Shown: positions 7,445 to 37,197, counted from the stretch's first letter. The stretch: 64,000 nucleotides of DNA from an uncultured Candidatus Saccharibacteria bacterium (GCA_964544225.1 CAZIZK010000001.1:143477-207476); one strand, 5' to 3'. The notes: generated by a model not told the origin, from the letters alone. Numbers and translations are program-made.

Positions 7445-7536
7445 TGTTTTATTGTACCAGAAATTGTGTGTAATATAAAAAAAGACGACCTCGCGTGAGC
7501 AAGGCCGTTTAAAATGGGTTTAATAAAAAATTAATT

Positions 7537-7881
7537 TTACCAAGACGTGAGGTCAGGGGAAAGTTTTTGATTTAAAATTCTTTTAATCTCAAACAGGTTT
7601 AACCCAGGGATTATTGTTTTCCCTTTCAAAAATGATTCTGTCGCCTTAAGTTGCTTTTTGGAATCTATTTTTTCTAAATTAGATTCGAAAGCTTTTTTTA
7701 CGATTTCAAATTCAGCAGTTTTTCTTTTACCTTGCTCAGACAGAATATAAAGGATTTTAATCATTTCTTCAAGACGTTTTGGTACATCTTTCATTAAACT
7801 CTCTGCGGGAGTAGTTTGTTGTTTGATTGCCATTTTAGCCTTGTTTCTGTTGCGAATAATAATTTCATGTTGTCTTGGCAT
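7537..7881 (-). CDS. hypothetical protein
   Basis: 114-aa ORF tightly upstream of recJ on the same strand; no recognisable motif. Confidence 0.4.
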   Translation of the reverse strand: MPRQHEIIIRNRNKAKMAIKQQTTPAESLMKDVPKRLEEMIKILYILSEQGKRKTAEFEIVKKAFESNLEKIDSKKQLKATESFLKGKTIIPGLNLFEIKRILNQKLSPDLTSW

Positions 7882-7925
7882 TTTTAAAAAATAAGTGTTT
7901 GTTTGCCTACATATTAGACGAGAAT

Positions 7926-9581: not shown

Positions 9582-9609
9582 ACATACGATTGTATCATAT
9601 ACTATAAAT

Positions 9610-9921
9610 ATGAACGAAGAATGTATATTTTGTAAAATAGTAAGTGGCATTATACCAGCAGATAAAGTGTATGAAGACGATGATTTTGTATCATTCCTAG
9701 ATATTCACCCTGTAGAAGTTGGCCATGCATTATTGATACCAAAAGCACACTACCAGTGGATGACAGACGCACCTAACGAAGTCATATCTAAAATATTTAT
9801 ATTGGCAAAAGAAATGATGATCAAGATGAAAAATGAACTGCCATGTGATTACGTCCAAGTAAGTATCGTCGGTAAAGATGTACCACATTTCCATATACAC
9901 CTAATACCTAAAAAATTATAA
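9610..9921 (+). CDS. HIT-family (histidine triad) hydrolase
   Basis: CIFCKI N-terminus and the histidine-triad motif HFHIHLIP. Confidence 0.85.
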   Translation: MNEECIFCKIVSGIIPADKVYEDDDFVSFLDIHPVEVGHALLIPKAHYQWMTDAPNEVISKIFILAKEMMIKMKNELPCDYVQVSIVGKDVPHFHIHLIPKKL

Positions 9922-9924
9922 ATA

Positions 9925-9949
9925 AAAAATGCCCCATAGGGCATTTTTT
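9925..9949. terminator. bidirectional intrinsic terminator (HIT gene / pgk convergent pair)
   Basis: aaaaaTGCCCcataGGGCAttttt hairpin; overlaps the pgk stop codon. Confidence 0.7.
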
Positions 9950-11063
9950 ATTTTAAAGCTTTCAGTCCTACTAACGTCCCCTTGGATAAGAATTCGAGTG
10001 TAGCCCCACCACCGGTGGATACAAAGGTAAATTTATCCCCGAGCTTTTTATGCTCTATGAATACTGAAGTGTCTCCGCCACCTATGATGACTTTAGCTTT
10101 TGTATTGATCAATAATTTAATCAGTGCATCAGTACCTTCGGTATAACCATGTTCATACCAACCCATAGGGCCGTTCCACAATACCAACTTGGCCTTCTTC
10201 ACCAAAGTCTCGATAGACGCAATACTTGGTAAGCCAATATCTAAAATTGCATCGTCTTTACTCATCTCGGTTATTGTTATTGTCTTCTTTTTGTTACCAC
10301 GTGACACAACTACTGTGTCTGGAAGTATTAACTTTTTACTTTTTAGAAATGGTTTCAGTGGTAATGAATCATGATCTATTACAGACTTGCCTACTTCATA
10401 CCCCTCGGCTTTAAAAAAATTGTTAGACAATGCTCCACCTACGAACACATTGTCGGCAGTCTTTAGATACTTCTTTATTAATGGCAACTTTGTCTCGGTC
10501 TTTGCACCACCAAATATAACTAGGAATGATCCAGTAGGTTTGAGTACACGAGACAGGTTCTTTACCTCGTTCTCCATCTGTAACCCTACAAAGGCCGGTA
10601 AATATGTTGGCAAGCCAACAATAGATGCGTCGGCTCGGTGAGACACAGGGAATGCGTCGTTCACATATATATCACCTAGGAATGCTAGGTTACGAGTGAA
10701 AGCTTTGTCATTAGCCTTCTCGCCAGCGTCGGAACGCAAGTTCTCTAGCAATATTACATCACCATTTTGCATAGTATTTATAGCCTTTTGTGCTAATTGT
10801 CCACAAATATCCTTAACGAATTTAACTTTGATAAATTTGTTTACAATTTTAGCAACAGGTGCCAGTGAGTCGGATGGATTGCGACCCAAATGACTGATCA
10901 ATATTACCTTTGCACCCTTCTTTACTAACAATTCGATAGTGGGTAATGCTTTACGAATACGGAAATCGTCCATTACTTTGCCGTTATTTATCGGCACGTT
11001 GAAGTCGACTCGCACTAATACCCTCTTGCCCTTTATATTCTTTAGTTCTTTTACTGATTTCAT
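9948..11063 (-). CDS. pgk: phosphoglycerate kinase
   Basis: RVDFNVP and GGGA-type motifs across the length (VRVDFNVPINNGKV, FGGAKTETKL, GGGDTSVFI). Confidence 0.95.
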   Translation of the reverse strand: MKSVKELKNIKGKRVLVRVDFNVPINNGKVMDDFRIRKALPTIELLVKKGAKVILISHLGRNPSDSLAPVAKIVNKFIKVKFVKDICGQLAQKAINTMQNGDVILLENLRSDAGEKANDKAFTRNLAFLGDIYVNDAFPVSHRADASIVGLPTYLPAFVGLQMENEVKNLSRVLKPTGSFLVIFGGAKTETKLPLIKKYLKTADNVFVGGALSNNFFKAEGYEVGKSVIDHDSLPLKPFLKSKKLILPDTVVVSRGNKKKTITITEMSKDDAILDIGLPSIASIETLVKKAKLVLWNGPMGWYEHGYTEGTDALIKLLINTKAKVIIGGGDTSVFIEHKKLGDKFTFVSTGGGATLEFLSKGTLVGLKALK

Positions 11064-11084
11064 GATATGTTTTTCAAAAAATAA

Positions 11085-11846
11085 TTATTTGGTATCTGAG
11101 TCTATAATAATTTTACCAAAATCCTTTACACTCAGACATGCACGGCCTACTAACAAACCATCAACACCTCCATGCATCATAAAATCGCGAGCATTGTCTT
11201 TGTTTACAGAACCACCATAAAGTATACGTGTAGCATGAGCCACTTTCGTATCACTCATGTCTGATACGACTTTCCTGATGAAAAGACTCATCTCCATACT
11301 CTCTACTGCTGTAGCCTCCCTTGTAGCAGATTTACCTATTGCCCAGATCGGCTCATAAGCGATAACCACCTTTTTAATATTTGATTTTGGTACACCAGCT
11401 AGTGACTCATGCAATTGCTTCTTTACGAATTGTAAATACTCACCACTACCATCGCGGTGTGACTCACCTACACACAATATAGGTGTAAGGTTAGACTTCA
11501 ACAAAGCATTTACCTTCTTAGATATAAACATACTGTCCTCCCCCATAGCTCGACGCTCAGAGTGGCCAACTATCACATACTTTACATTTAATTCTTTGAG
11601 CATTTTTACAGAAACTTCACCAGTAAAAGCACCAGTTGCTTCTGGATACACATTCTGTGCACCAAGTATGGCACGAGTTGTAGACAAAGTTTTCAATACT
11701 GGCAAGAAGGTATAAGGTGCACACATTACCACATCTACATTCTTTGTCTTATTTGCTACCTTCTTTACACTAGCAAATAAAGAACGGGCTTTTACAACCC
11801 CCTCTGGGTTCAACTTCCAATTACCTACTATAAGCTTTTTATTCAT
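11085..11846 (-). CDS. tpiA: triosephosphate isomerase
   Basis: LIVGNWKLN, VGHSERR and YEPIWAIGKSAT motifs; start at MNKKLIVGNWK. Confidence 0.9.
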   Translation of the reverse strand: MNKKLIVGNWKLNPEGVVKARSLFASVKKVANKTKNVDVVMCAPYTFLPVLKTLSTTRAILGAQNVYPEATGAFTGEVSVKMLKELNVKYVIVGHSERRAMGEDSMFISKKVNALLKSNLTPILCVGESHRDGSGEYLQFVKKQLHESLAGVPKSNIKKVVIAYEPIWAIGKSATREATAVESMEMSLFIRKVVSDMSDTKVAHATRILYGGSVNKDNARDFMMHGGVDGLLVGRACLSVKDFGKIIIDSDTK

Positions 11847-11888
11847 GTGTATATTATAACACAAGAAATAAATGGTATTTATACCATA

Positions 11889-13148
11889 TTATGAATCAAG
11901 AGGGTTGGATCCTTCGATAAGAATTGGGTCTGGGGGGTTCCCATCACCAGAAGACGAGGCATGTCCGCTATTATCATTATCAACAACTACAGTAATTAGC
12001 TTGGAAACAGTTGTATTACCTGTATTATCATAGGCTTTAGCAGACAATTCATGGCTACCATCAGTGGTTGTAGTAGTGTCCCACACTATAGAGTATTGCG
12101 GTGTTGTGTCTACTCCAATAAGAGTATCGTCACTATAGAACTCCACCTTTGCAATACCACTAGTATCATTGGCAAAAGCATTCACAGACACTGTATAAGA
12201 AACTGTTGCCCCTGGCGCAATATTGGTAATCTTGGCGGCAGGAGGTGTTGCATCTGGGATAATACTGGTTGGAATTTCGGGTGTTGGTTCTACTGCCTGT
12301 AATGCTTCGGCTTGGGCCTGGGCTACTGCCAAGTCGGACTGGGCTTGTTCAACCACTTGTTGCTGATTTGTTATCTGACTAGGTGTAACTACAGGGGTGT
12401 TACTACTTGTACTTGATTGTGAAGTAATTGAATCCAGGCTTGCAGTTATCTTGTTCAATTCAGAAACAGAACTATTCACAATAGCTTTGTATTCATTAAT
12501 CTGGGCCTGTGACAAGTTAGAGTTTGTGGTAGTTAGGCTATCTACTGTCGACTTTAATTCCTGGATAAATTGATTTACAAAAGTAATATTATTTTCTGTA
12601 CTTGAAATAAGTGTAGATAGTGATACGCTTGAATTCGTAACTTTTGAACCGAGCTTAACTTCGGCATTGTAAGTATTTAATATATTCTTCCAAGAAGACA
12701 TTACACTCTCGACATTCTTGCGCATAGCGTTGATATTGTCATCTAAGGTGGAATCTTTAAAATTGATCTTGATTTGTGGTGTTGCTGTTTTAGCTTTATC
12801 AAATAATTTATCAGATTGTTTATCTAATAAATTACGAGTAGAGTTGTATTTGGCTTCGAGCATCTTCACAGCATCCTTCTCTGCTTCTCCACGTGTCACT
12901 AGAACATCTAGAGCTTTCGTTTCTTCCTCCACACGAGTAGTTGCTACTTGAAGCTTTGCTAATGCTTCAGCCTTTGGAGTGTGGGCCAATTCCTTCTTCT
13001 TTACCTCTTCTTGCTGTTGTGAAAATATTCGATTAGGAACGATAACATACTTGTGAACAAAGTAATAAACAACGATAGGAATAATTATCACGAAGCATAT
13101 AGCTGTGATTATAAATGGATTCATCTTACTTTTATTTGTATCGTTCAT
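11889..13148 (-). CDS. membrane-anchored coiled-coil protein with C-terminal Ig-like (Big-type) domain; pilus-operon member of unknown role
   Basis: Single N-terminal TM helix (FIITAICFVIIIPIVVYYFV), a long Q/S/T-rich coiled-coil, and a C-terminal beta domain (VSYTVSVNAFANDTSGIAKVEFYSDDTLIGVDTT...SHELSAKAYDNTGNTT) resembling bacterial Ig-like domains. It sits between tpiA and the PilX-like gene with 20-23 bp gaps. Confidence 0.55.
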   Translation of the reverse strand: MNDTNKSKMNPFIITAICFVIIIPIVVYYFVHKYVIVPNRIFSQQQEEVKKKELAHTPKAEALAKLQVATTRVEEETKALDVLVTRGEAEKDAVKMLEAKYNSTRNLLDKQSDKLFDKAKTATPQIKINFKDSTLDDNINAMRKNVESVMSSWKNILNTYNAEVKLGSKVTNSSVSLSTLISSTENNITFVNQFIQELKSTVDSLTTTNSNLSQAQINEYKAIVNSSVSELNKITASLDSITSQSSTSSNTPVVTPSQITNQQQVVEQAQSDLAVAQAQAEALQAVEPTPEIPTSIIPDATPPAAKITNIAPGATVSYTVSVNAFANDTSGIAKVEFYSDDTLIGVDTTPQYSIVWDTTTTTDGSHELSAKAYDNTGNTTVSKLITVVVDNDNSGHASSSGDGNPPDPILIEGSNPLDS

Positions 13149-13167
13149 GTATTTATATTATACACAA

Positions 13168-14637
13168 TTAACGAATCTCTTCCCAAGATATTGTAGAGTA
13201 TTTGTCAGAAGTTAAAGGGAATGATGGTGGTGGTGCATACAATAACTTTGCATCGTATATAATAGTACGATTTGTATAACCTGTTCCATTGGTATAAGCG
13301 AATCCGTAACGCTGGTTCGTACCGATCATGCCATACAATGTTATTAGATCACGATCATCATAAGGAGAACAACTAGAGCTATAATAATACCTACCTACCC
13401 TACCATTCACTGCCATTAATGCTGCGTCAATACGTAGATCATCTTCACTCACCATACCTACATTTATATTGTTCTGTCCGATCAAAGATATTACATCTTG
13501 TCCGTCATAATTTGTATACAATAAATCTTTATTTACAGTTATGCTCTTGCGAGTACTTGGGTTGTCAGGGAATACTCCGGCCGCAACAGTTATGCGTGCA
13601 GTATTTATCTTGCCATCTACCCAAACATTGTCCTCGACAAATATTAAACCATTTGCAGGGTTTGCATAGTTGGCAACAAATGTCTCGCTATTACTTGCAG
13701 TACTGATACTCCAACTACCCCAGTCTGTGGTATTGCTAGAGTTACTTGAACAAGAGCTCGATGGTGAGACCAGCTTCTTTACTTTGTAAACATCGTAAGT
13801 GTCATTATTTTTGAATATTATATGATAACCGAGGAATCCAGATGGTGAGAAGTATTTACCACCAGATGTAGCATTGGTCTTTATAGTAGACAAGTCATTG
13901 GTCATACCAGTAAAGTCGGCTTGGGGTACTGGGAACTGGCGTCCAGCGAGGAATACATCAGATCGTGTGGCAACACTACTGTTCGGTGCTTCGGCTGACC
14001 TGAAAGTATCATTAACACCGCTTGATGGTGGAGCGTTCACGTGAGTGTGTACACCGAACTCCACATTACCACTATGGTCCGGATCATCGTACGAGGACAC
14101 AGCACTAGTAACCAAGTTGTGAGCTATACCATCGAACCGAATACCATTGTTGGAATGTATTGGCCCAAAAACTTCTGTCCCCTGTCCGAAACGCATTGCA
14201 TCGTTTGCCACAACAGCATATCGTGCAAAAGAAGCAATGGCTAATTTGGTTTGTATTGTCTTCTTTGTATTAGGAAAAGCATTGGTATAGCCCTGAGACT
14301 TTATCGTAACAATAGTAGACCCAACCGCTGGTGGTGTAATAGTAAGAATAAATTGACCTATTGCCACACCATCTTTGTCATAAAAAGTATGCGTATAAGG
14401 CCCAGGCATTCCTGTCCCATCCTGGAAGTCATTTGGTGCATGTGCCAAATGCCAACGATAATAATCAATACCCGCTTCAGCCACCTGAAGTGCTTGCTCA
14501 CGCGAATATGCCACACGAGCAATGTTTACCGAAGATGCGGCCCAAGCCACATATACCACCACCAAAGACAGTGCAATCATGGAAAACACAATTACATTTA
14601 GAAGTATGGCACCTTTTTTATAATTTAATTTATTCAT
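13168..14637 (-). CDS. PilX-N-terminal-like pilus assembly / minor pilin protein
   Basis: N-terminal hydrophobic helix followed by REQALQVAEAGIDYYRWHL, characteristic of the PilX N-terminal family; large Ser/Thr-rich beta-rich remainder. Confidence 0.6.
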   Translation of the reverse strand: MNKLNYKKGAILLNVIVFSMIALSLVVVYVAWAASSVNIARVAYSREQALQVAEAGIDYYRWHLAHAPNDFQDGTGMPGPYTHTFYDKDGVAIGQFILTITPPAVGSTIVTIKSQGYTNAFPNTKKTIQTKLAIASFARYAVVANDAMRFGQGTEVFGPIHSNNGIRFDGIAHNLVTSAVSSYDDPDHSGNVEFGVHTHVNAPPSSGVNDTFRSAEAPNSSVATRSDVFLAGRQFPVPQADFTGMTNDLSTIKTNATSGGKYFSPSGFLGYHIIFKNNDTYDVYKVKKLVSPSSSCSSNSSNTTDWGSWSISTASNSETFVANYANPANGLIFVEDNVWVDGKINTARITVAAGVFPDNPSTRKSITVNKDLLYTNYDGQDVISLIGQNNINVGMVSEDDLRIDAALMAVNGRVGRYYYSSSCSPYDDRDLITLYGMIGTNQRYGFAYTNGTGYTNRTIIYDAKLLYAPPPSFPLTSDKYSTISWEEIR

Positions 14638-14641
14638 AGTA

Positions 14642-15271
14642 TTACAAGTTGTCTTTTAAGTTACGAACACTAATCTGCGTTGTTACAGTTACTGGTACTG
14701 GTGACCTATTTGGGTCCACATCGACTATCATATTGACCTTGATCAATCGTATAAATGAAATATTTACAGGTTGAGTAAGTGGTGATGTTGTTCCGGTATA
14801 ATTAGTATCATAATAAGTAAAGACAGGGGTCGCACCATTACGAAGGTTGTGGACCAATTCAGTAAAAGTCTCGTTCGCTGTTGTGTATACAAGCGGGTTA
14901 CCTGTTGGAATTATCACTCCCTTTTTCAAAGTGGTGCCTTGGATAAAATATCTAATCCTTTCTTTTAATCCATCATCATTAATATCTGTAAAGAAAACAA
15001 AGCTATTATCATCTGCAATTTCAATAGGGTATGAACCTAAAGATGAAGGAGACATCGAGCGGATCTCTGAAGACATAGGTTGTAGAACATGCCGAGCATC
15101 ATCGTAAGCAGTCAAACCTCCAGAGAATACACTATTGTAATAAAAAGCGTTACGAGCAAATAACCCTATGACACCTACCATCATAACCAATACAGCAATA
15201 CCAATAACGAGCTCAATAATATTGAAACCACGGTTTGTTTGTATTTTATTTTTAAAAATATTTTTATACAT
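14642..15271 (-). CDS. prepilin-type N-terminal cleavage/methylation domain minor pilin
   Basis: Class-III signal: short basic leader MYKNIFKNKIQTNRG | FNIIELVIGIAVLVMMVGV, with Glu at +5 after the Gly cleavage site. Confidence 0.7.
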   Translation of the reverse strand: MYKNIFKNKIQTNRGFNIIELVIGIAVLVMMVGVIGLFARNAFYYNSVFSGGLTAYDDARHVLQPMSSEIRSMSPSSLGSYPIEIADDNSFVFFTDINDDGLKERIRYFIQGTTLKKGVIIPTGNPLVYTTANETFTELVHNLRNGATPVFTYYDTNYTGTTSPLTQPVNISFIRLIKVNMIVDVDPNRSPVPVTVTTQISVRNLKDNL

Positions 15272-15274
15272 ATA

Positions 15275-17077
15275 CTATGGTGATATAACAAACTCCTCCT
15301 TCTGCCAAGCAGATGCGACATTAACAATACGTGAAGTATCTAGATATCCTGTCTTTGTTATAGATATAGTATAGTTCCCTGTAGCCAGACCCGAGAAAGA
15401 TACTTGTCCGGGTGGAACACAGTCTGATGTGTAAGTAAAAGATACGTCAGATATAGATGGTGTATAGCTTGAGTCAGCAGTGGAAAGAAATATTTTGTAT
15501 TTCAAATATCTATTACCATTATGAGTCGAGCCTATGTCTTGGTTTGAAGTAGTAAAATATGTTGATGATGTTCCATCTGGGCCTACAAAGTTCCATGTAG
15601 CATTGTCATTATTGGTAGCAACTTGGAACCTAACACTCTGAGAACCTGTCTGGGGGGGTTGAGTAGCGCTCTTCCAAGTGATCTGTCGGAAATTACTACC
15701 TGCCCCAGTATCAAAGGAAGATGATGTAAGTATCGCACTTGCTACATATGAACCAGAGACCATCTTTAAAGTTACATCCCCCGGTGAAGTGGAGACATCC
15801 ACATTACCATCTGAAGAGTAGTACATAATACTATCCCCAATGCTCGCCTGACCATCACCCCCTGACCAATCTGTCTGGTTAAAGAAGCCCTGACTTGTAA
15901 TAGAGTTAGTTGAGTAACTACTAGGCCCAGTGACAGATACTGTCGCGTCAGATATAGGCAAGCCTGTGGCTTGGTCACGTACGACTACTAACAGCCTCCT
16001 ACCGTTCTTTGTTTCTGTAATTATTTGTATATTCTGGCTTGAGTTTGGTGGCACACCGAGTGACAATAATGGATTAGTACCAATAATGTCACGAGTACTA
16101 TCGGAACCTGTAATATTGTAAGTATCCCACTCTATGTTACTGAGAGTCGAATTACCAGAACCATTTGTGGTAAAACCTTGTGAGTATTTAATAACATTTG
16201 GACTAGTACCAATAAGTTTTGTTCCAAAAAAATCAAAACCAAAACTTGATGATGCCACGCATTGATTGTTTACAGCTGATGCATATACTGTACTAACTTT
16301 GTCGATAGTAAATGAGACTTGGGTAACTTGCTGTAACACCACTGTCGCATCGGGTTTGCTAGGATTCGGGTTACCTGAAGCCCCTACAGGATGTGTCCTA
16401 TCGCTTGAGTACCCGCTCTTACTAATATATATACGATACTGACCAGAAGATGGTGGCGCATCTACGATAGTTAGCATCCCACTAACATCGGTCTTATCCA
16501 CTATATTTATATTCGGTATAACGCTCGTGTTTACCACATTTACATCAGCAAGTGATACAGGTAAGCCCGAGGAGTCAAACACTCGAACAACCAATGCCCC
16601 ATTTGTAGAAGCTGTTTCTAGGTTCTTTGGAGCTATCTTTGTAGTAAAAGATACTGGGGTAAAATCCTTACATGAAGCACACAAGACTTCTACTTCGATC
16701 AATTTCATATCAGCTGGGGATAGATCATTTGGTGAACCACCAAGTGTGCCGTCGAAAGGATCATCAATATTACGCACAACAATATTAACTGTGTATGTTT
16801 TACCATCGCGAACAATACTCTGGCTTTGTGGTAATAATCCAGCAGGCACACCTCCGACAGTACCTACACTTGTATAAGGCAAGTTACGAGCTATTTCGAA
16901 TTGTTCATTTATCAAATTTGTTACAACCTCTTTGTTGCGTATCACATTCATAAGCGCAAGTATCTTCGAGAAGCCTCCATAAATACCAACAGATACACCC
17001 ACAAATATCGCAACAGCAATCAGTGTCTCGACTAGTGTGTATCCTTGGTTTTTATTTTTACTGGAAAATGAATACAT
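15275..17077 (-). CDS. giant (600 aa) prepilin-leader pseudopilin / pilus-associated adhesin
   Basis: Leader MYSFSSKNKNQG | YTLVETLIAVAIFVGV (Glu +5), followed by about 560 aa of Ser/Thr/Gly/Asn-rich beta-type domains. Confidence 0.7.
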   Translation of the reverse strand: MYSFSSKNKNQGYTLVETLIAVAIFVGVSVGIYGGFSKILALMNVIRNKEVVTNLINEQFEIARNLPYTSVGTVGGVPAGLLPQSQSIVRDGKTYTVNIVVRNIDDPFDGTLGGSPNDLSPADMKLIEVEVLCASCKDFTPVSFTTKIAPKNLETASTNGALVVRVFDSSGLPVSLADVNVVNTSVIPNINIVDKTDVSGMLTIVDAPPSSGQYRIYISKSGYSSDRTHPVGASGNPNPSKPDATVVLQQVTQVSFTIDKVSTVYASAVNNQCVASSSFGFDFFGTKLIGTSPNVIKYSQGFTTNGSGNSTLSNIEWDTYNITGSDSTRDIIGTNPLLSLGVPPNSSQNIQIITETKNGRRLLVVVRDQATGLPISDATVSVTGPSSYSTNSITSQGFFNQTDWSGGDGQASIGDSIMYYSSDGNVDVSTSPGDVTLKMVSGSYVASAILTSSSFDTGAGSNFRQITWKSATQPPQTGSQSVRFQVATNNDNATWNFVGPDGTSSTYFTTSNQDIGSTHNGNRYLKYKIFLSTADSSYTPSISDVSFTYTSDCVPPGQVSFSGLATGNYTISITKTGYLDTSRIVNVASAWQKEEFVISP

Positions 17078-17081
17078 ATTT

Positions 17082-18299: not shown

Positions 18300-18311
18300 C
18301 CTGTTTAAAAA

Positions 18312-20063
18312 TTACTCCGAGATAACACGCAACACTTCTTCTGTACTTGTTACACCTTGAACAGATAGGAATATTCCATCTTCGATCATACTTAGCATAC
18401 CTTCTTCTTTTGCTTGTTTCTCGATAGCTTCATCAGAGGCGCCCTTTAATATCAATTCTTTAATAGCAGGGGTCACCTTCATAACTTCATGTATACCAAT
18501 ACGGCCTTTGTATCCGTCAGGCGACTCGGTACTTGGCTTTGCGCGATAGAAAGGTATCTTGTCTATTGTGGCATCATCGGGAACAATCTTTTCAAATTTT
18601 AAGAATTTTAATATTCTTTCCAAGTCTACTACCTTTGACAGATTTGCTTTTTCTGCCTCACTCAGGAAATATTGTTCCTTTTCCTCTGTTAGTCTGCGTA
18701 CTAGACGCTGGGCGATAACAGTCTTTACTGTAGATACAATAAGGAATGGCTCTACACCCATATCGATCATACGAGGAATAGCCCCGGCAGATGAGTTGGT
18801 GTGTATGGTAGACAATACGAGGTGACCAGTAAGAGCTGCGTTGATACCAAGTGATGCTGTCTCTCCATCACGGATTTCCCCCACCATGATTATGTCAGGG
18901 TCCTGACGAAGAAGTGTACGCAAACCGTTAGAAAATGTCAGACCAATTTCAGACTTTGTTTGAGTCTGGTTTATACGTGGCATCTGGTATTCGATAGGGT
19001 CCTCTATCGTAGATATGTTTACCTCTGGAGTATTGAGGATATCCATCATTGTATATAGTGTAGTTGTCTTACCAGAACCAGTCGGCCCTGTGGCAAGCAA
19101 CATACCAGTGCGTTGCTTCATACCTTCGTGGATACGTTCTAGAGCTTCACCGTGAAAGCCAAGTCCCTCGAGAGAGAAGCCTTTTGAATTCTCACGCAAT
19201 AGACGGATAACAGTCTTCTCGCCATAGTATGTAGGTAGTGTTGATACACGGAAAGACACGCGACCTTGATCATTCTCTATCTTAAAACGTCCGTCTTGGG
19301 GCAACCTCTTTTCATCGAGCTTTAGATTTGAAAGGACTTTGATACGCGCAGTAATACCAGAAGCTGTATCTTTTGGTAGTGTCATAGCATCATGAAGGAT
19401 ACCGTCGATACGGTAGCGCACGATAACTGTTGTTTCCTCGGGTTCTATGTGCACGTCAGATGCACCCTGCAGTATCGCGTGAGATATAAGCGTGTCGACT
19501 ATCTTCACTATTGGCAGGTCCTCGGCCAGTTCTTTTAGGTCCTTCTCGCTCTGGGGTTCACCACTTGTATCATTAATAGCTTTGAGAGACACACTTTCCT
19601 TTTTTATTATGTCTTCAAAGTCAGCTTCGAGACTCTTCTTGTACAATGCCAATGCTTCCTTTATAGAGTCCGAGCTTGTAAGACGTGGAAGGATCTTTAC
19701 CCCCACCTTCTTCTTTATAGAGTCGATCACTGCCAAGTTCTCCACATCAAGCATCGCTACTTCCAAACCCTTATCACTTTGCTTATAAGCAATGATATTG
19801 TTATTGCGAGCGATAGGCTCAGGGATGAGTGACAGGACTGCAAAGTCGATCTTCTCCCCCTTTAGGCTTACAAAAGGTATACCCAGTACTACTGATTGCA
19901 TAGAACGATAATCCTTCTCGGTTAGTTTGCCTTCGGATATCAATATATCACCGACACTTTGACTAGTGTCATGCGATTTCTTTACGGCCATTTCAAGATC
20001 AGTTTTACTTAGAAGTCCTGATTCGCGAATTAGTTGTAAGATTTTATCTTCATCTATTTCCAT
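18312..20063 (-). CDS. pilB: type IV pilus assembly ATPase PilB (GspE family)
   Basis: Walker A GPTGSGKTTTLY, Asp/His boxes, and a C-terminal GspE ATPase core with an N-terminal GSPII_E-like domain. Confidence 0.95.
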   Translation of the reverse strand: MEIDEDKILQLIRESGLLSKTDLEMAVKKSHDTSQSVGDILISEGKLTEKDYRSMQSVVLGIPFVSLKGEKIDFAVLSLIPEPIARNNNIIAYKQSDKGLEVAMLDVENLAVIDSIKKKVGVKILPRLTSSDSIKEALALYKKSLEADFEDIIKKESVSLKAINDTSGEPQSEKDLKELAEDLPIVKIVDTLISHAILQGASDVHIEPEETTVIVRYRIDGILHDAMTLPKDTASGITARIKVLSNLKLDEKRLPQDGRFKIENDQGRVSFRVSTLPTYYGEKTVIRLLRENSKGFSLEGLGFHGEALERIHEGMKQRTGMLLATGPTGSGKTTTLYTMMDILNTPEVNISTIEDPIEYQMPRINQTQTKSEIGLTFSNGLRTLLRQDPDIIMVGEIRDGETASLGINAALTGHLVLSTIHTNSSAGAIPRMIDMGVEPFLIVSTVKTVIAQRLVRRLTEEKEQYFLSEAEKANLSKVVDLERILKFLKFEKIVPDDATIDKIPFYRAKPSTESPDGYKGRIGIHEVMKVTPAIKELILKGASDEAIEKQAKEEGMLSMIEDGIFLSVQGVTSTEEVLRVISE

Positions 20064-20081
20064 ATATAAATATTATACCAG

Positions 20082-20140
20082 AAAAAAATAAACATTATAC
20101 TATGTAATACACAGTATAATGTTTATTTTTATTTTTATTT
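20082..20140. terminator. bidirectional hairpin terminator separating the upstream surface-protein genes from pilB; overlaps the pilB extended -10
   Basis: Perfect 12-bp stem aaacattatact / agtataatgttt (20090-20101 / 20113-20124) with an 11-nt loop and A/T runs on both sides. On the minus strand TGGTATAAT lies 8 nt upstream of the pilB ATG. Confidence 0.65.
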
Positions 20141-20141
20141 T

Positions 20142-21743
20142 TTAGAAAGGTTTAAATATAGGTTTTATAGTTGTGCTGGATGCATTGGTACAGAATTTTA
20201 TTTTGAGTGATTTTGGATTAACATTTTGTGCGCTACCAGTAATTGTCAGAGTAATTTCTTCTAAAACTCCGGCACCAGGAGATGCAACAAGTAATGCATT
20301 GTATTCTGGTGTAGTAAGGGAAAGCTGTGCATCTACTGTATTGTGTGGGCCAGAACCATATGTAAATCCACCTGAAGGTGATATCGTAAATGTTCCCGAA
20401 TACGCACTACCTGAAACAGAAGCATCACTGATAAAACCATAGAGTGGATTCAATGTTAGAGTAACAGCACCTATGTATGTACCGAAACCATTATTGGCAA
20501 CAATAGCCCCAGGTGAACCTCCACATGAGGTTGCACCACTAACTGTATAATTCGGTAAACATACATTAGCTCGAGCTTGTCCAGAAGTGGCAGTACCCAT
20601 ATATGAACCGGAACCATTAGTACAAGAAAGTACATAATTTGTATTTTTGTCTTGATAATTTGTATCTAATTCTGTTCCAGGGGACGTACCACTAACACCA
20701 AAACTATAAGATGTCATCAAATCAGTTGTTTCCGCATCAATAGTACAAGAAGGAGTTGGGTCATTTGTAGACCAAGATATTATAGGACTACCGCCGGGGG
20801 CGACACAACTATTGTTGTAGCTCGCGCCCGCTGTCAGTGGTACGGCCGTAACACTAGCATTACCCGATGCATTGCGTGATCCGTCAGTACAAGTGAGGGT
20901 AAATACGGTTGTTGCATTAATAGGTACGTGAATATTTGAATATGTTCCGGAACTGGTGCTAACAGTCTTTACATTTGTCCAGTCAGTATCGGTGCCTGTA
21001 CCACTACCAGTACATGAAGTAGGAGTAAAGTCAGATACAGACCAAGTAAAGTCTACAGTGTCACCAGACAATATACTTGAGGAAGAAGGTGTTAATGTAA
21101 GTGTGGATGGTAAATCTATAAAAAATACTCCACCATTTGCAGGGTTATAACTGGAACCCGAGTCACCAGACATATCTACCCACCCCACAACGTCGTCACC
21201 CCACCAGTACCCAGAGGCAACATATACTGTTTGCCCAGTAAAACCTGTTCCCCAAGAAGTGTCTACAACATTTGTTGATCCAAAAGGTGCACTATATGTA
21301 GTACCCGTTGTTGCACCTAGTGATATCCACCCCTCCCATTTGTCTGTGCCTGTGGCTGTAGAATTCTTTGCGGAAATTGCTCGCCCCCAGCCACCAGCAC
21401 CCCAAGTGTTAGAGAAAGAAGAGAGCGTGCATCCTGTAGCCCCTGGTGGACAAGTCCCCCAGTCAGTAGGGTTAAAGCTGATCCAGCCCACATTGTTGTT
21501 CCAAGCATAGCCACTGACAATAGTACCATTCTTGTTCACTCCATAAGACACACTGCCACATGTAGAAGCGTCGCTCGGATTAGTACAATTATTAAAGCTG
21601 ATCCAGCCTATGTTCTCGCTCCAAGCTTTGCCAAATACGTTGTCAGAGGTACTAGCCTGTGCATGACCAGTAAAAATATTAAAAGAGAGCAAGCAGAAGA
21701 TTGCTATAAAGAAAGTAGATTTGATAATCTGGAAAAATTTCAT
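20142..21743 (-). CDS. secreted Cys/Thr/Gly-rich repeat protein (putative cell-surface protein)
   Basis: Signal peptide MKFFQIIKSTFFIAIFCLLSFNIFTGHAQA. Repeated Trp motifs (ENIGWISFNNCTNP, NNVGWISFNPTDWG, EGWISLG, VGWVDM), many Cys, and long Thr/Ser/Gly tracts. Start set at MKFF (21743). Confidence 0.55.
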   Translation of the reverse strand: MKFFQIIKSTFFIAIFCLLSFNIFTGHAQASTSDNVFGKAWSENIGWISFNNCTNPSDASTCGSVSYGVNKNGTIVSGYAWNNNVGWISFNPTDWGTCPPGATGCTLSSFSNTWGAGGWGRAISAKNSTATGTDKWEGWISLGATTGTTYSAPFGSTNVVDTSWGTGFTGQTVYVASGYWWGDDVVGWVDMSGDSGSSYNPANGGVFFIDLPSTLTLTPSSSSILSGDTVDFTWSVSDFTPTSCTGSGTGTDTDWTNVKTVSTSSGTYSNIHVPINATTVFTLTCTDGSRNASGNASVTAVPLTAGASYNNSCVAPGGSPIISWSTNDPTPSCTIDAETTDLMTSYSFGVSGTSPGTELDTNYQDKNTNYVLSCTNGSGSYMGTATSGQARANVCLPNYTVSGATSCGGSPGAIVANNGFGTYIGAVTLTLNPLYGFISDASVSGSAYSGTFTISPSGGFTYGSGPHNTVDAQLSLTTPEYNALLVASPGAGVLEEITLTITGSAQNVNPKSLKIKFCTNASSTTIKPIFKPF

Positions 21744-21845
21744 ATACAAATACATTATACTATATTCTAGAATGGTATCAATAAAAAAATGCATCATACC
21801 CGAAGATACAATGCATTTGAATATAGGAATTGCTATCGGAGGGTT

Positions 21846-23603
21846 TTAATCTCGGATGGACAATTTTGTTTGGTATGTTTTTTCGTTACTTTGAACAGTA
21901 ACGATGTACACACCAGTAGAAAGATCAGGCAAAGTTAAAGTGTTAGAGAGTAAAGTACCCTCAAAAACTTGTTTGCCAGAATATGAAAAAATATAAATTT
22001 TAGCTCCTGATACAGAATTGATGGTAAGAGTACCATTACTTGTAGCAGGATTCGGATATACATTTAAAGTGTTTGCTGAGTTCGTATGAACACCAGTATT
22101 TTGCGTTTGCAATGTTTGCGGATCAGAGTATTCACCCCATCCTGCAATATTGTGTGCACGTACTTTAATTGTATATGTGGAATTGGATTTTAGATTGGTT
22201 AGAGTGTAGTTATTCACTTTACCCAAATCAATCGTATTCCAATCAGCATTGTCAGCAGTTTTGTAAACAACTTCGAATCCATCGGCAACCGCACCGCCTG
22301 TTGGTAATGGGTTAGACCATTCAAGTGTTCCGTTCCAAACAACTGTTAGGTTAGGTTTAAAAGGTGCACGAGCAACTTTCACTAAATAACTGTAGACATC
22401 TGGGTTTTTTGACAAACCAGAAAGAAGGAAACCTCCATCAGACATCTCATTGATCTTTAAAACCAAAAACTGCTCGCCATCAATCGCTTCTTTTAACAGA
22501 AACATTGTGTCGGTTAGTGTTTTCGTTACGAGTATTTGGCAATACTTGTATTGATCGTTTTGATTGTTTAGTTGATACCCTAGTGAGGTCAGGTAGTAGA
22601 ATCGATTTACATCACTGTATTTCAACTCCGTCCTCATGCCACGGTTGTTTTTTAGAAATGGTATGACTATATCAGTTTTTTGCAAACCTGAGTTAGATAT
22701 AACTACCTTTCTTACTACATCCGTATTCAAACCGTTACCATAAATTACAAATTCAAATGAATCTTTGGCACAAAGCCTTGCACTTAATTTCTCATAGAAA
22801 TAATCACCCTTTCGAAGAGTTGGCAATGGTGTTACGTAATGCCACTTTTCCATTATCTGTAAACTAACAACTCCAATAGTCTGGTTGTTAAATTTTGACA
22901 AACAATAGAAGTCGTACTGATAAGATTCTGATGAAGTCCACATAAAAAATGTGTCCTTCCTTGTAACAAGAATGATTTCATCTTGAAAAATATTCAAGCT
23001 AATTGGAGAATAAGATATAGGTACATCTGCTGACTCCAGCATTTCACCTGTCTTCTTATTCACTGTAAACAAAACCCCCGAAAAAGCTACAATAAAATAC
23101 TCATTAGACTCTACAACCTTACCGGTTATTTGAATCATGTTTATATTTTTGACTTTATCTGAGATTACCTTAAAGCTTTCATAATTCTTCTGCCAAACAA
23201 CTTTACCTTCTTCTGAGATTAATGTCAGCTGTGGAACAGCTTCTATCCTTGATTTAAAAGTGTCTTTTGTTGTTATCAACTTTGATAAAACAAGAAGTCC
23301 AGAATTCGGAATATGGATCTTATCCAATAAATTTCCGATAGTAGTATCGCAAGAAACTATTTTTTTATTACCAAGATTTTCATCAAAAGTAAAAAAAGAC
23401 AGTTCACCCTGTGATATAGAATTGGATGGTATGGAAGTATAAATAACCCCAGATACACCCAAATTAGTCGTGGTAGCCTCAAAAGAGGTTCCACCAAACC
23501 CTTGTAGGGTTGAGATCTTCAAGCCCATGTCTTGGGCTGTAGCTACGCTAGGTGCACTTGCAATAGCAAGAGCCACTACTAGCAAAAACGTATACTTTTT
23601 CAT
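21846..23603 (-). CDS. secreted protein with fibronectin type III domain and T9SS-type C-terminal sorting domain
   Basis: Signal peptide MKKYTFLLVVALAIASAPSVATAQ. FN3-like segment (PLPTGGAVADGFEVVYKTADNADWNTIDLGKVNNYTLTNLKSNSTYTIKVRAHNIAGWGEYS). Final approx. 75 aa (NVYPNPATSNGTLTINSVSGAKIYIFSYSGKQVFEGTLLSNTLTLPDLSTGVYIVTVQSNEKTYQTKLSI) match the Por/T9SS CTD consensus (YPNP, GxY..V...K..K..). Confidence 0.7.
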   Translation of the reverse strand: MKKYTFLLVVALAIASAPSVATAQDMGLKISTLQGFGGTSFEATTTNLGVSGVIYTSIPSNSISQGELSFFTFDENLGNKKIVSCDTTIGNLLDKIHIPNSGLLVLSKLITTKDTFKSRIEAVPQLTLISEEGKVVWQKNYESFKVISDKVKNINMIQITGKVVESNEYFIVAFSGVLFTVNKKTGEMLESADVPISYSPISLNIFQDEIILVTRKDTFFMWTSSESYQYDFYCLSKFNNQTIGVVSLQIMEKWHYVTPLPTLRKGDYFYEKLSARLCAKDSFEFVIYGNGLNTDVVRKVVISNSGLQKTDIVIPFLKNNRGMRTELKYSDVNRFYYLTSLGYQLNNQNDQYKYCQILVTKTLTDTMFLLKEAIDGEQFLVLKINEMSDGGFLLSGLSKNPDVYSYLVKVARAPFKPNLTVVWNGTLEWSNPLPTGGAVADGFEVVYKTADNADWNTIDLGKVNNYTLTNLKSNSTYTIKVRAHNIAGWGEYSDPQTLQTQNTGVHTNSANTLNVYPNPATSNGTLTINSVSGAKIYIFSYSGKQVFEGTLLSNTLTLPDLSTGVYIVTVQSNEKTYQTKLSIRD

Positions 23604-23715
23604 ATTTTATTTTCAAATAGAGTTTGATTACATTATCCCATATAAAAGCAAATAAAGTCAAGCAAATGCCTGACTTTATCCACAGTAGCCAAGAAGGCTA
23701 TATTTTATAAGGTTA

Positions 23716-24858
23716 TTATAGGGTATATGTAATCTTTACAGCACCTTGTGCACCTTGACCTCCCAGAGGCCAGTCACTAGGTGCAGACTTTCCATAAGGC
23801 CATTGATTCAATCCCTCACCATACCTACCAACAGTAAATATGTATACCTCACCAGGATTAACAGTAACATCGAATTTGACATACCCTGCCCCACCGCCAC
23901 CAGCATGACCATCTTGACCCTCAAAAAGAGGATCATTGAGATAAGAATCTCCAGAATATCCTCCTGTTCCCCCAAAGCCTGAACCTCCTACACCATATAT
24001 GGTAGGAGTTGTACCATCTGATCCATAAGAACCTACATTCATAACAGAACTACCGCAAGTAACACCAACCATTGAACCAGGATCACCACCAGCACCGCCA
24101 GATACGCCAGACACTCCAGCACTAGCCCCTCCCTCCCCACCGGATCCACCTGTGCCTCCAGTAAATAAAGAAGGACACCCGCTACCTGTTGGGCTACTAC
24201 TACTAGTTGCATTACCACCATTACCACCATTAGTTTGTGTTACATATGTAAATTTTGAATATGTTGGTGTTGTATATGTACCACCAGCACCTCCTATTGT
24301 GCCTGAACCTTTTTTGCCACCTTTTGCAATGACTTTATTAGCAAAACTTCCTGACCAATAAAATGTAGTATCACCTCCATCTGAATTAACACTTGAATCA
24401 TTACCACCACCTCCACCCCAGATCTCAACAGTCATAGCTGTTACATTGGTTGGTATATATATCTCTGCATCACTCTGATATACAATAGACAATGTATCTC
24501 CTGCACACAATTCCAGCACTCCATCGCTGTCAGCACACACCTTTTGACTACCGGTTGAAATCAAAGTATCTGCTTTTATACTCCCCTCAATATCTGCGCC
24601 CCCAGCAACAGCAAGCCCAGTAGATAATATGTAGCCTATAACATCAAGCTTGTAAGGGCTAGTTGCCGCAGCGGTACTTGCAATAGCCAGTGTCCCTGCC
24701 TTTGCTTGGTCAGAAGCAGAAGTATCAATAGGTGCCGATGCGGTGCCATTGTCAACAGGACTTGCAGTAGGTGCTGTCCATGTTGCCCCGGCAAATGATA
24801 TACCCACGGCCAATACTAGGCCTAGTATGATTGATTTGATTTGATTTTTATAATTCAT
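23716..24858 (-). CDS. secreted glycine-rich protein (paralogous N-terminal module with the next gene)
   Basis: Signal peptide. N-terminal module KAGTLAIASTAAATSPYKLDVIGYILSTG...VCADSDGVLELC, then Gly-rich low-complexity repeats (GGNGGNATSSS, GGTGGSGGEGGASAGVSGVSGGAGG). Confidence 0.5.
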   Translation of the reverse strand: MNYKNQIKSIILGLVLAVGISFAGATWTAPTASPVDNGTASAPIDTSASDQAKAGTLAIASTAAATSPYKLDVIGYILSTGLAVAGGADIEGSIKADTLISTGSQKVCADSDGVLELCAGDTLSIVYQSDAEIYIPTNVTAMTVEIWGGGGGNDSSVNSDGGDTTFYWSGSFANKVIAKGGKKGSGTIGGAGGTYTTPTYSKFTYVTQTNGGNGGNATSSSSPTGSGCPSLFTGGTGGSGGEGGASAGVSGVSGGAGGDPGSMVGVTCGSSVMNVGSYGSDGTTPTIYGVGGSGFGGTGGYSGDSYLNDPLFEGQDGHAGGGGAGYVKFDVTVNPGEVYIFTVGRYGEGLNQWPYGKSAPSDWPLGGQGAQGAVKITYTL

Positions 24859-24884
24859 AATAGATTTATTCTAATTAATAATAA

Positions 24885-25274
24885 TTAACATATAATAAGT
24901 GTTCCTGTAGTGTCTGCGCATACGTTACTTGTGCCAGATGAAGACAATGCATCGTTGGTAACAGTACCTGTAATAGACATATTTCCACCAACACCACTCG
25001 CCTTTATCACAGATACGCCTGTACTATATATAGAGCCTCGGACATCTAGCTTGTAACCCACAGTCAGTATAGGTGCAGTAGTAGAACCATCACCCACTTT
25101 TAACCCCCCAGCTTTGAACTCATCTGTAGTAGTGGTAGAAGTATCTTCGTGGATAAGCCCTATACCATTATCACTCGGAGGGGTTGCTGGTCGTGAAGCC
25201 AATACGTATTGGAAAGTCACCGCCAAGAGCGACCCGATGATAATTATTTGTAATAATGCTGTGTATTTCTTCAT
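24885..25274 (-). CDS. small secreted protein, paralogue of the N-terminal module of the 23716-24858 protein
   Basis: Signal peptide; KAGGLKVGDGSTTAPILTVGYKLDVRGSIYSTG...VCADTTGTLIIC aligns with the neighbour's N-terminus, including the conserved Cys pair. Confidence 0.5.
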   Translation of the reverse strand: MKKYTALLQIIIIGSLLAVTFQYVLASRPATPPSDNGIGLIHEDTSTTTTDEFKAGGLKVGDGSTTAPILTVGYKLDVRGSIYSTGVSVIKASGVGGNMSITGTVTNDALSSSGTSNVCADTTGTLIIC

Positions 25275-36427: not shown

Positions 36428-36452
36428 CAGACAGTTGTTTCGTTTAAAATAT

Positions 36453-36523: not shown

Positions 36524-36530
36524 CAAAAAA

Positions 36531-37191: not shown

Positions 37192-37197
37192 GTGTGT

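Follow-up and report, generated by a model that had tools for sequence, protein, structure and literature searches.

Streptococcus sanguinis builds an adhesive pilus with modular type IV pilins, in which functional modules (vWA in PilB, lectin in PilC) sit on the C-terminus of a canonical pilin domain. In the GspI-GspJ-GspK and PilV-PilW-PilX sets, several pilin-like proteins are encoded together, one of which lacks Glu5. In Thermus, the pilin that binds DNA at the pilus tip is ComZ, which in Thermus thermophilus is encoded at the locus pilA1-pilA2-pilA3-comZ-pilA4 (structure PDB 6QVI; Salleh et al. 2019, PMC6561018). ComZ combines a GspK-like pilin domain with a very large beta-solenoid-type insertion, and proteins of this type would be confined to the fibre tip because of the size of that insertion. 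Finally, Nanosynbacter lyticus TM7x (Saccharibacteria), a member of the same superphylum as the organism studied here, has two systems, T4P-1 and T4P-2, whose large minor pilins are PilX1 and PilX2; those minor pilins that bear large accessory domains have been proposed to be its host-binding tip proteins, and some of its minor pilins resemble T2SS pseudopilins (PMC11623550).

We analysed a 64-kb stretch of DNA (the window) from a Paceibacteria (Candidate Phyla Radiation) bacterium. All the reading frames listed in a preliminary description of this DNA were found at its coordinates on the minus strand (Table 1), and its proposal that the genes are a type IV pilus module of a host-dependent organism was borne out, the lineage being Paceibacteria. 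We consider it probable that the region consists of a conserved five-gene Paceibacteria pilus operon, a separate neighbouring tpiA-pgk unit, and lineage-specific additions. Promoters and terminators are motif predictions throughout.

Table 1. Features of the pilus region and its surroundings, in window coordinates.
Feature	Position	Strand	Description
p551, p585, p380, p129	20142..25274	(-)	putative secreted/surface proteins, mostly lineage-specific
intrinsic-terminator hairpin	20085..20129	(-)	predicted; ends p551 unit; upstream edge of pilus block
-10 box of pilB, TGGTATAAT	20072..20080	(-)	predicted, extended; leaderless-type; ends 8 nt before ATG
pilB	18312..20063	(-)	type IV pilus assembly ATPase, MshEN domain at N-terminus
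pilC	17082..18299	(-)	platform protein of inner membrane, T2SSF x2
p600 (600-aa)	15275..17077	(-)	predicted modular type IV pilin, leader G/YTLVE
p209 (209-aa)	14642..15271	(-)	predicted small type IV (minor) pilin, leader G/FNIIE
p489 (489-aa)	13168..14637	(-)	predicted PilX_N/GspK-type cap pilin, ComZ-like at fold level
-10 box of p419, GTGTATAAT	13157..13165	(-)	predicted; 8 nt before ATG
p419 (419-aa)	11889..13148	(-)	lineage-specific membrane-anchored Big_7 Ig protein (predicted)
-10 box of tpiA, TGTTATAAT	11853..11861	(-)	predicted, extended; 6 nt before ATG 11846
tpiA	11085..11846 (ORF to TTG 11864)	(-)	triosephosphate isomerase
pgk	9948..11063	(-)	phosphoglycerate kinase
intrinsic-terminator hairpin after pgk	9920..9953	(-)	predicted; MFE -17.8 kcal/mol, z -3.98; downstream block edge
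recJ, 114-aa ORF, rnhA, comEC	5673..9650	(-)	conserved downstream neighbours by Pfam; context, outside pilus operon
recJ	7926..9650	(-)	Pfam match
rnhA	6986..7444	(-)	Pfam match
comEC	5673..7013	(-)	Pfam match

The genes pilB, pilC, p600, p209 and p489 form what we predict to be a tight five-gene type IV pilus operon. Intergenic gaps from pilB to pgk are, in gene order, 12, 4, 3, 4, 19, 24 and 21 nt, or 42 nt between p419 and tpiA if the latter starts at ATG 11846. The gaps had previously been given as 4-23. Within the five pilus genes (13168-20063), gaps are 3-12 nt in the window and have medians of 12, 11, -10 and 8 nt in relatives, where terminator-like hairpins occur at 0-6% of the internal junctions. 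PilB is an extension ATPase of the PilB/GspE family (PF00437, E 7.5e-121), matching the PilB model TIGR02538 at E 7.7e-156 and 520 bits, below the equivalog cut-off of 675.65 bits; it carries an N-terminal MshEN domain (PF05157, E 3.5e-13), as the ATPases of type IVa and MSHA pili typically do. PilC is a PilC/GspF-type platform with two T2SSF stretches (PF00482, E 3.7e-59) and NCBIfam matches to GspF and PilC (E 1e-98 to 1e-86). We found no major pilin, PilD, PilM/N/O or PilT among the remaining ORFs of the window, as had been noted before, and the major pilin, PilD and PilM/N/O (and PilT) must lie elsewhere in the genome. In this the window differs from locus one of TM7x, which also encodes PilM/N/O, PilT and PilD.

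Prepilin motifs occur at only two sites in the whole window, in p600 and p209, which both have the class III signal peptide of pilins with an E5 that is invariant in both families, as in GspI-J-K and PilV-W-X. For p600, Pfam matches to N_methyl and CarboxypepD_reg (E 4.5e-11) were identified, and an AF2 model (pLDDT 81) places a helix at 15-64 and strands at 85-148, followed by about four tandem Ig/CnaB-like beta-sandwich domains (160-600), for which Foldseek returned Ig domains of Gram-positive surface adhesins and sortase pilins (E 2e-11 to 1e-5). The model thus points to a modular type IV pilin, with a pilin domain followed by about four independent Ig-like domains. It resembles the S. sanguinis pilins by architecture, but carries four Ig/CnaB/transthyretin-like beta-sandwiches as its modules, and no ligand-binding domain was recognised among them. 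More than 2545 homologues were found in Paceibacteria (51-100% identity), and E17 and four Cys residues are invariant in the family. The small p209 has the sequence features of a canonical small pilin; of 80 related loci, 79 have it, almost always with a G/(F, L, V, I, M or Y)xxxE leader, and a search of the PDB with its family profile gave matches to the N-terminal ends of PilA, geopilin and MshA (E 7e-5 to 4e-3). From its position and conservation only, we infer that it is a minor rather than a major pilin.

The third pilin-like protein, p489, has a conserved Asn at +5 and no Glu5. It was previously called PilX-N-like. PilX_N (PF14341) matches 19 of the 69 diverse family members, the best of them at E 7.4e-9, and five of 32 close members; for the window protein alone, no match reached any Pfam threshold. 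The assignment as a cap pilin of PilX_N/GspK type, with a PilX_N domain and no Glu at +5, therefore applies at the family level. The AF2 model is of medium quality (pLDDT 65, with residues 135-246 not resolved) and has a helix at 6-66, a sheet at 81-134 and the last strand at 480-488. The models of p600 and p489 thus agree with the earlier view of both as pilin-like proteins, the predicted structures having the N-terminal helix and four-strand sheet of the pilin fold. Against PDB folds, the only significant match of the p489 model was ComZ (6qvi; E 2e-5, prob 1.0), with a low TM-score of 0.25 from this medium-quality model. We consider p489 to be probably a Glu5-less pilin with a large beta-rich (solenoid-like) insertion, which would be ComZ-like at the level of fold only. 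Sequence similarity to ComZ was not detectable: ComZ was not among the matches when two profiles were run over the whole set of PDB sequences at E up to 10. The two lysines of ComZ could not be placed on p489, which is mildly acidic (pI 6.1), so that its charge lends no support to DNA binding. The gene order is also reminiscent of Thermus, as p489 adjoins other minor pilin genes, and in six related loci (two named Wolfebacteria) lies directly upstream of a gene for a canonical major-pilin-like protein of 142-149 aa, as comZ does of pilA4. In contrast to Thermus, the minor pilin genes here lie in the same operon as pilB and pilC, and the host lineage is reported to have no PilQ secretin (PMC6744442).

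As a set rather than protein by protein, p600, p209 and p489 can be likened to GspI, GspJ and GspK. Only three pilin-like genes are present, with no counterpart of GspH/FimU or PilY1, and two of the three proteins have 2-3 times the size of canonical minor pilins. The large extra domains of p600 and p489, the latter matching ComZ only, are of the kind expected of tip-located binding proteins, in keeping with the earlier suggestion. They differ in fold, as predicted solenoid and tandem Ig domains, from the beta-jelly roll and beta-propeller accessory domains of TM7x, whose pilins have been tested genetically (PMC11623550).

We identified p489 homologues (more than 4101, from Paceibacterota wherever named) in a family of 1304 representatives of 50%-identity clusters. 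Median identity of p489 across 69 genomes is 60%, near the 64.5% of PilB; the 80 related loci were selected for their similarity to p489, so that this protein may look more conserved than it is. Among GTDB species genomes, 580 of 600 pattern matches encode a relative, and the pilus operon is present in at least 580 species-level genomes. These distributions suggest that the five-gene operon is conserved across uncultured ultrasmall Paceibacteria.

In contrast, p419 and the upstream genes appear to be mostly lineage-specific additions. In p419 we identified a Big_7 Ig domain (E 1e-15), an N-terminal membrane helix, a helical region and a Ser/Thr-rich linker. Only three full-length relatives were found among 5.8 billion proteins; the gene is present in only two of 81 loci, with the Ig domain alone in a third. 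We therefore do not count it as part of the conserved module, and interpret it as a narrow, lineage-specific insertion between p489 and tpiA with its own predicted -10 box. The translations of p551 (true start probably 21743), p585, p380 and p129 have signal-peptide-like N-termini, as previously described; p585 contains fn3 and a T9SS-type C-terminal domain, and p380 and p129 are paralogous. We found no homologues of these four in the related loci, except for the N-terminal domain of p551 (seven loci) and the N-terminus of p380 (one locus). Terminator-like hairpins part p380 from p585, p585 from p551, and p551 from pilB. Thus the upstream four, mostly lineage-specific and with two of them and pilB set off by such hairpins, do not belong to a conserved ensemble with the operon. 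The strong hairpin reported before pilB is present (20-22 bp stem and T-run; MFE -22.9 kcal/mol, z -9.35), and 51% of the 69 related loci examined also have a clean terminator-like hairpin before pilB; in the window, two more terminator-like hairpins occur among the upstream genes (21787-21818 and 23648-23683).

The preliminary description took tpiA-pgk for the apparent distal end of a pilus operon. We regard as improbable a single polycistronic operon from pilB to pgk in which the two glycolytic genes are functionally coupled to expression of the pilus. Both genes are assigned by Pfam (pgk, PF00162, E 4.1e-115; tpiA, PF00121, E 5.8e-76, with profile position 1 on ORF residue 10), and the true start of tpiA is likely ATG 11846, not TTG 11864. 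From pilB to pgk the genes share one strand with short gaps, the strong terminators of the window lie solely before pilB and after pgk, and the hairpins in between are weak and non-significant, that after p419 having -5 kcal/mol and z -0.25. Among relatives, tpiA follows p489 on the same strand in 57 of 71 (80%; median gap 37 nt), with a median of 7 nt between tpiA and pgk (55 relatives; 21 nt in the window), and 84% have no clean terminator-like hairpin at the p489-tpiA junction. However, internal promoters are predicted, as p419 and tpiA each have a perfect TATAAT that precedes the ATG by 6-8 nt. Of 50 window genes, 10 have this motif at -12 to -16, where 0.24 would be expected (P ~1e-13), and the predicted tpiA box has the same architecture as that at pilB. 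A TGnTATAAT-type box (up to one mismatch) precedes tpiA in 53 of 61 relatives (87%), compared with 50% at pilB (perfect TATAAT in 31%) and 8-31% at internal genes; the TATAAT before tpiA is perfect in 22 of the 61, with the TG extension in 20 of these. A terminator-like hairpin separates p489 from tpiA in 16% of relatives, strong in 10 and reaching -31.7 kcal/mol. Moreover, the synteny breakpoint among relatives falls exactly at this junction, where one locus has tpiA-pgk inverted as a pair and p419, with its own predicted box, is inserted in the window. Loci without downstream tpiA had no recJ, rnhA or comEC match downstream either.

Since tpiA has its own predicted leaderless-type box and synteny breaks at its junction with p489, tpiA-pgk is predicted to be a separate transcription unit, a conserved neighbour of the pilus operon within one terminator-bounded block. 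Because this block is shared, read-through from the pilus promoter into tpiA-pgk is possible, and one long mRNA could still arise, as no significant terminator lies between p489 and pgk in the window. A functional fusion with the pilus machine is unlikely, and we are not aware of any biochemistry that would connect TpiA or Pgk with the assembly of pili.

A second explanation, which we find doubtful, is that the region serves DNA scavenging, with p489 as the DNA receptor, ComEC for import, RecJ and RNase H for degradation, and sugar carbon passing through TpiA and Pgk into lower glycolysis, the genes being kept together by selection for co-regulation. Where the flank is long enough, 71-81% of relatives retain the order pilB...p489-tpiA-pgk-recJ-rnhA-comEC (recJ in 48/59, rnhA in 40/56 and comEC in 42/56), compared with only 32% for nusA upstream. 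[quoted passage not shown] However, predicted boxes at tpiA, recJ and rnhA and a median pgk-recJ gap of 594 nt argue for separate units, and the unrelated housekeeping genes nusA and ppa are also syntenic, so that inherited gene order suffices as an explanation. The six loci with a major pilin gene retain the pilus operon without the tpiA-pgk-recJ-rnhA-comEC neighbourhood, and T4P-2 pilus mutants of Saccharibacteria retained wild-type competence (PMC11623550).

It is very unlikely that the operon builds a short T2SS- or Com-like pseudopilus for protein secretion or cell-wall transport instead of an extended surface pilus, since the near-equal scores that PilB obtains with the GspE model (E 4e-150) and the PilB model (E 8e-156), the best PilC score being to GspF, the likeness of the three pilins to GspI-J-K, and weak matches of the p600 N-terminus to ComGE and GspJ are set against the MshEN domain of PilB, the lack of a secretin or other T2SS-specific genes in the window, tip modules of at least 450 residues that make most sense if exposed, and the pili observed on cells of the radiation, where type IV pilus genes are widespread (PMC6744442, PMC11623550).

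Under our preferred reading of a conserved pilus operon beside a separate tpiA-pgk unit, the operon would supply an extension ATPase (PilB), a membrane platform (PilC) and three pilin-like proteins forming a priming and tip complex comparable to GspI-J-K or PilV-W-X. In this complex, p489 would be the Glu5-less cap bearing a ComZ-like beta-solenoid, p600 a modular pilin whose Ig-like domains form a displayed stalk, and p209 a small connector pilin. Tip location, assembly order, ligand and actual transcription are what we infer here: PilC would be the platform on which the complex is built first, PilB would provide the power, and polymerisation of a major pilin whose gene lies elsewhere would then push the complex outward, so that p489 and p600 would come to lie at the tip. 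There, the pilus of these bacteria could bind extracellular DNA and/or the surface of host cells.

The row of genes from pgk to pilB, its coordinates and its minus-strand orientation, as set out in a preliminary description of this DNA, were reproduced exactly by our ORF listing, with 3-24 nt between neighbouring genes. Four ORFs lie between pilC and tpiA and are named here by their lengths in amino acids (p600, p209, p489 and p419), and four ORFs for secreted or surface proteins (p551, p585, p380 and p129) lie upstream of pilB, with N-termini that resemble signal peptides, as had been proposed. A six-frame motif scan of the 64 kb identified prepilin leaders only in p600 and p209. Pfam scans of the other ORFs identified no PilD, PilT, PilM/N/O or major pilin, in agreement with their previously noted absence from the pilus locus.

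Genes and predicted signals, in window coordinates
Feature	Position	Strand	Remarks
Lactamase_B gene	1918-2778	-	free-standing; ~3 kb from comEC
comEC (446 aa) with rnhA	5673-7444	-	28-nt overlap
Hairpin after pgk	9920-9953		-17.8 kcal/mol, z -4.0; strong
pgk	9948-11063	-	PF00162, E 4e-115
tpiA	11085-11864	-	PF00121, E 6e-76
-10 box, tpiA	11853-11861		
p419	11889-13148	-	N-terminal membrane helix, helical region, Big_7 Ig domain
-10 box, p419	13157-13165		
p489	13168-14637	-	no Pfam match
p209	14642-15271	-	leader G|FNIIE
p600	15275-17077	-	leader G|YTLVE, N_methyl, CarboxypepD_reg
pilC	17082-18299	-	T2SSF, two stretches
pilB	18312-20063	-	T2SSE E 8e-121, MshEN
-10 box, pilB	20072-20080		
Hairpin before pilB	20085-20129		-22.9 kcal/mol, z -9.4; strong
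Further -10 box	21754-21762		
p585	21846-23603	-	
p380 and p129	23716-25274	-	
Four tRNA genes	36357-37533		
Tyrosine recombinase	41768-42745	-	phage-integrase family
comM/yifB homologue	53760-55331	+	in-frame TAG, 54819-54821

Searches with p489 (E <1e-3) recovered over 4101 homologues, of which the top 120 (62-100% identity) belong to Candidatus Paceibacterota wherever the source gives a name. More than 2545 homologues were found for p600, several of them annotated merely as prepilin-type N-terminal domain proteins. In GTDB, sampled at one genome per species, at least 580 p489 relatives were confirmed, and an exhaustive profile search placed 1304 representatives of 50%-identity clusters in the family, 349 of them at E below 1e-30. 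Thus, from the spread of p489 and p600 homologues, the species scan and the cluster count, sequence comparison places the window in a Paceibacteria genome of the Candidate Phyla Radiation and indicates that the pilB-pilC-p600-p209-p489 cassette is a class-wide feature.

Synteny was surveyed by tblastn of the window proteins against the best 80 of the at least 580 p489 loci, whose MAG labels are Paceibacteria/Paceibacterota, Nomura-, Zambryski-, Taylor-, Vogel-, Giovannoni- and Wolfebacteria, together with many MAGs deposited under the title Saccharibacteria. The order pilB-pilC-p600-p209-p489 was found in essentially all of the 80 loci, with successive median gaps of 12, 11, -10 and 8 nt. Where the flanking sequence is long enough, tpiA lies downstream on the same strand in 57 of 71, and pgk (52/65), recJ (48/59), rnhA (40/56) and comEC (42/56) also lie downstream, while nusA is found upstream of pilB, in divergent orientation, in 20 of 63. 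Loci without downstream tpiA likewise miss recJ, rnhA and comEC, and in one locus (L073) the tpiA-pgk pair is inverted together, so that synteny breaks exactly between p489 and tpiA. In six loci (L055, L066, L069, L070, L071 and L081), two of them named Wolfebacteria, tpiA is replaced directly after the p489 homologue by a canonical major-pilin-like gene of 142-149 aa (GFTLIELLVVIGIIAILAGVVIVALNP...), which lies ~1.5-1.8 kb past the start of that homologue. All of these except L055 also carry ~1.7 kb of unmatched sequence between p600 and p209, room for an extra gene. In the window itself, ComEC carries no metallo-beta-lactamase domain, which agrees with reports on this radiation.

The preliminary description had taken tpiA-pgk as the distal end of one pilus operon. 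No significant hairpin was found in the pilB-pgk block between its two flanking terminators, a candidate at the p419/tpiA junction (-5 kcal/mol, z -0.25) being rejected as not significant. Perfect TATAAT boxes, mostly TGnTATAAT, end 6-8 nt before the ATG of pilB, p419 and tpiA, and none was seen when the junctions of the tightly packed internal genes of the block were read. TATAAT starting at -12 to -16 was identified for 10 of 50 window genes, versus 0.24 expected (Poisson P ~1e-13), the other boxed genes starting at 40413, 41750(-), 45648, 47481(-), 53760 and 59416, and Shine-Dalgarno motifs are almost absent from the window. From the spacing of the boxes, transcripts are therefore predicted to begin at or beside the start codon, as leaderless-type mRNAs, and this predicted promoter signature is genome-wide.

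In relatives, a -10 box with at most one mismatch precedes rnhA in 78% (perfect TATAAT in 24%), recJ in 70% (8%), pilB in 50% (31%), and pilC, p600, p209, p489 and pgk in 8-31% (0-8%). Clean terminator-like hairpins were identified upstream of pilB in 51% of related loci, after pgk in 28%, at the p489/tpiA junction in 16%, at the tpiA/pgk junction in 2% and within the pilus operon in 0-6%. Both the predicted -10 box that tpiA itself has in 87% of relatives (perfect in 36%) and the break in synteny argue against its inclusion, with pgk, in the pilus operon; glycolytic genes in a pilus operon are an attractive idea, and probably a wrong one. The best reading of these motif-based predictions is of three units, namely the pilus operon with its five genes, p419 as a lineage-specific unit, and tpiA-pgk, which is independent of the pilus promoter; all three share one terminator-bounded block in which read-through is possible.

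Of the related loci, only two were found to carry p419, namely the identical Logan contig and, at 38% identity, the nearest relative, and 5.8 billion proteins yielded just three full-length relatives, the remaining matches being to the Big_7 domain alone. A role for p419 as a conserved pilus component, such as a PilN/O analogue, was rejected given its absence from 78 of 80 related loci. The secreted proteins encoded upstream, which had been grouped with the pilus genes in one ensemble, do not belong to the module, as the related loci lack them, except for a p551-like N-terminal domain in seven, and terminator-like hairpins intervene (p380/p585, p585/p551 and p551/pilB).

Individually, p585 combines an fn3 domain with a C-terminal sorting domain of T9SS type A (Por_Secre_tail; E 1e-9 in Pfam and 3.5e-11 in NCBIfam), and no homologue of it was found in the 80 related loci. 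The Paceibacteria group is not known to have either an outer membrane or type IX secretion, and p585 may have been acquired horizontally or may reuse a beta-sandwich. The paralogous p380 and p129 resemble each other in their N-terminal region and in the motif CAD..G.L..C at the C-terminus; p380 has a long Gly-rich segment besides, and neither has a Pfam match. Elsewhere in the window, the tyrosine recombinase gene adjoins an Exo_endo_phos nuclease gene ~4.5 kb from the tRNA cluster, and may be XerC/D-like or a mobile-element remnant. The comM/yifB homologue, a Mg-chelatase-like competence helicase, has its single in-frame TAG in a conserved stretch, which could represent a nonsense mutation, a pseudogene or an assembly error.

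The proposal that the 600-aa and 489-aa proteins are pilin-like was borne out by AF2 models, each with an N-terminal helix and four strands. The p209 family has a prepilin-type G|xxxxE leader, with E5 invariant in all members examined, and in the PDB the family profile aligns with PilA, geopilin and MshA at their N-terminal helices. In the p600 model (pLDDT 81), a helix (15-64) and four strands (85-148) are followed by beta-sandwich domains to residue 600, for which Foldseek identified Ig/CnaB-type domains of Gram-positive surface adhesins and sortase pilins (best TIE 6fwv, 2e-11; then PitA, BcpA, SpaA and SdrD). As modelled, p600 is a modular type IV pilin with Ig-like domains.

In p489, Asn occupies position +5 after a conserved Gly, and Glu5 is missing; PilX_N was detected in 5 of the 32 close family members and in 19 of the 69 diverse ones (best E 7e-9). 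The p489 model (pLDDT 65) consists of a helix (6-66), a four-strand sheet (81-134), a conserved region without resolved structure (135-246), short strands (270-460) and a conserved last strand (480-488). Its only significant matches in the PDB were three chains of the Thermus thermophilus competence pilin ComZ (E 2e-5 to 9e-5, probability 0.97-1.0, TM 0.21-0.25), and PilA2, the partner pilin of ComZ, was among the weak fold matches. To our knowledge, ComZ is the only structurally characterised DNA-binding tip pilin. It is a GspK-like pilin with a ~380-residue beta-solenoid between its penultimate and last strands, which binds DNA and has been argued to cap the competence pilus (PMC6561018). 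The predicted order of secondary structure in p489 fits this topology of a solenoid inserted in a pilin sheet. Searches of profiles A1 and A4 of the p489 family against all PDB sequences (E <=10) returned nothing relevant for a sequence-level link to ComZ or any solved structure, and because sequence similarity is not detectable we propose, with moderate confidence, a relationship at the level of fold.

Median identities across 69 genomes, from loci selected by p489 similarity, a choice that may raise the p489 value, were 60% for p489, 64.5% for PilB, 61% for NusA, 47% for PilC and 45% for both TpiA and Pgk. Exposed adhesins do not usually evolve so slowly, and sequence conservation of p489 approaching that of the motor ATPase suggests a conserved or invariant ligand or role. 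Within residues 135-246 (pLDDT <50), HSNxGIRFDG and DDPDHSGNxEFGVHTHV are highly conserved in close relatives. An invariant cluster of His, Asp and Arg (149-199) in the close subfamily raised the idea that the putative solenoid might be a tip-borne enzyme, a glycan- or DNA-processing hydrolase. We regard this as a low-probability variant; an enzymatic His/Asp site was rejected, as DDPDH...HTH is invariant only in that subfamily, and the wider family keeps HSN.GIRFDG but loses the His/Asp cluster.

By analogy with GspI-J-K and PilV-W-X, we infer that p600, p209 and p489 would build a priming complex on PilC, of which p489, lacking Glu5, would form the cap. Driven by PilB, a major pilin encoded elsewhere would then polymerise and carry the putative p489 solenoid and the p600 Ig stalk to the pilus tip. 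The ligand there may be either DNA, which is what ComZ binds, or a component of the host surface, as with Saccharibacteria PilX2 (PMC11623550). DNA uptake by type IV pili and ComEC has already been proposed in this radiation, in which ComEA was reported in only 31% of genomes (PMC6744442). For the receptor that is often absent p489 is a candidate, to which its pI (6.1) lends no support. The fuller reading, in which p489 serves at the tip as a ComZ-type DNA receptor replacing ComEA and the tpiA-pgk/recJ/rnhA/comEC neighbourhood reflects a DNA-as-nutrient pathway, appears rather unlikely.

Both type IV pili in the Candidate Phyla Radiation and, in Saccharibacteria, minor pilins with large accessory domains were already known. 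Our literature searches found no description of a class-wide pilB-pilC-p600-p209-p489 operon of Paceibacteria, of a tandem-Ig modular pilin or of a conserved but transcriptionally separate tpiA-pgk neighbour, no experimental work on Paceibacteria pili, and nothing relevant on ComZ in Patescibacteria, a ComZ-like fold of p489, or leaderless mRNAs in this radiation, including the Paceibacteria signature. Among uncultured bacteria, Paceibacteria rank with the most abundant and diverse, and are thought to be host-attached and to scavenge nucleotides. The analysis defines a compact five-gene operon in hundreds of their species-level genomes, and the strong leaderless-type promoter signature offers a means of delimiting transcription units in this and related genomes. 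Within the operon, p489 and p600, now annotated only as hypothetical or prepilin-domain proteins, are concrete candidates for the pilus tip, and the conservation of p489, close to that of the motor ATPase, makes it a good target for biochemistry.
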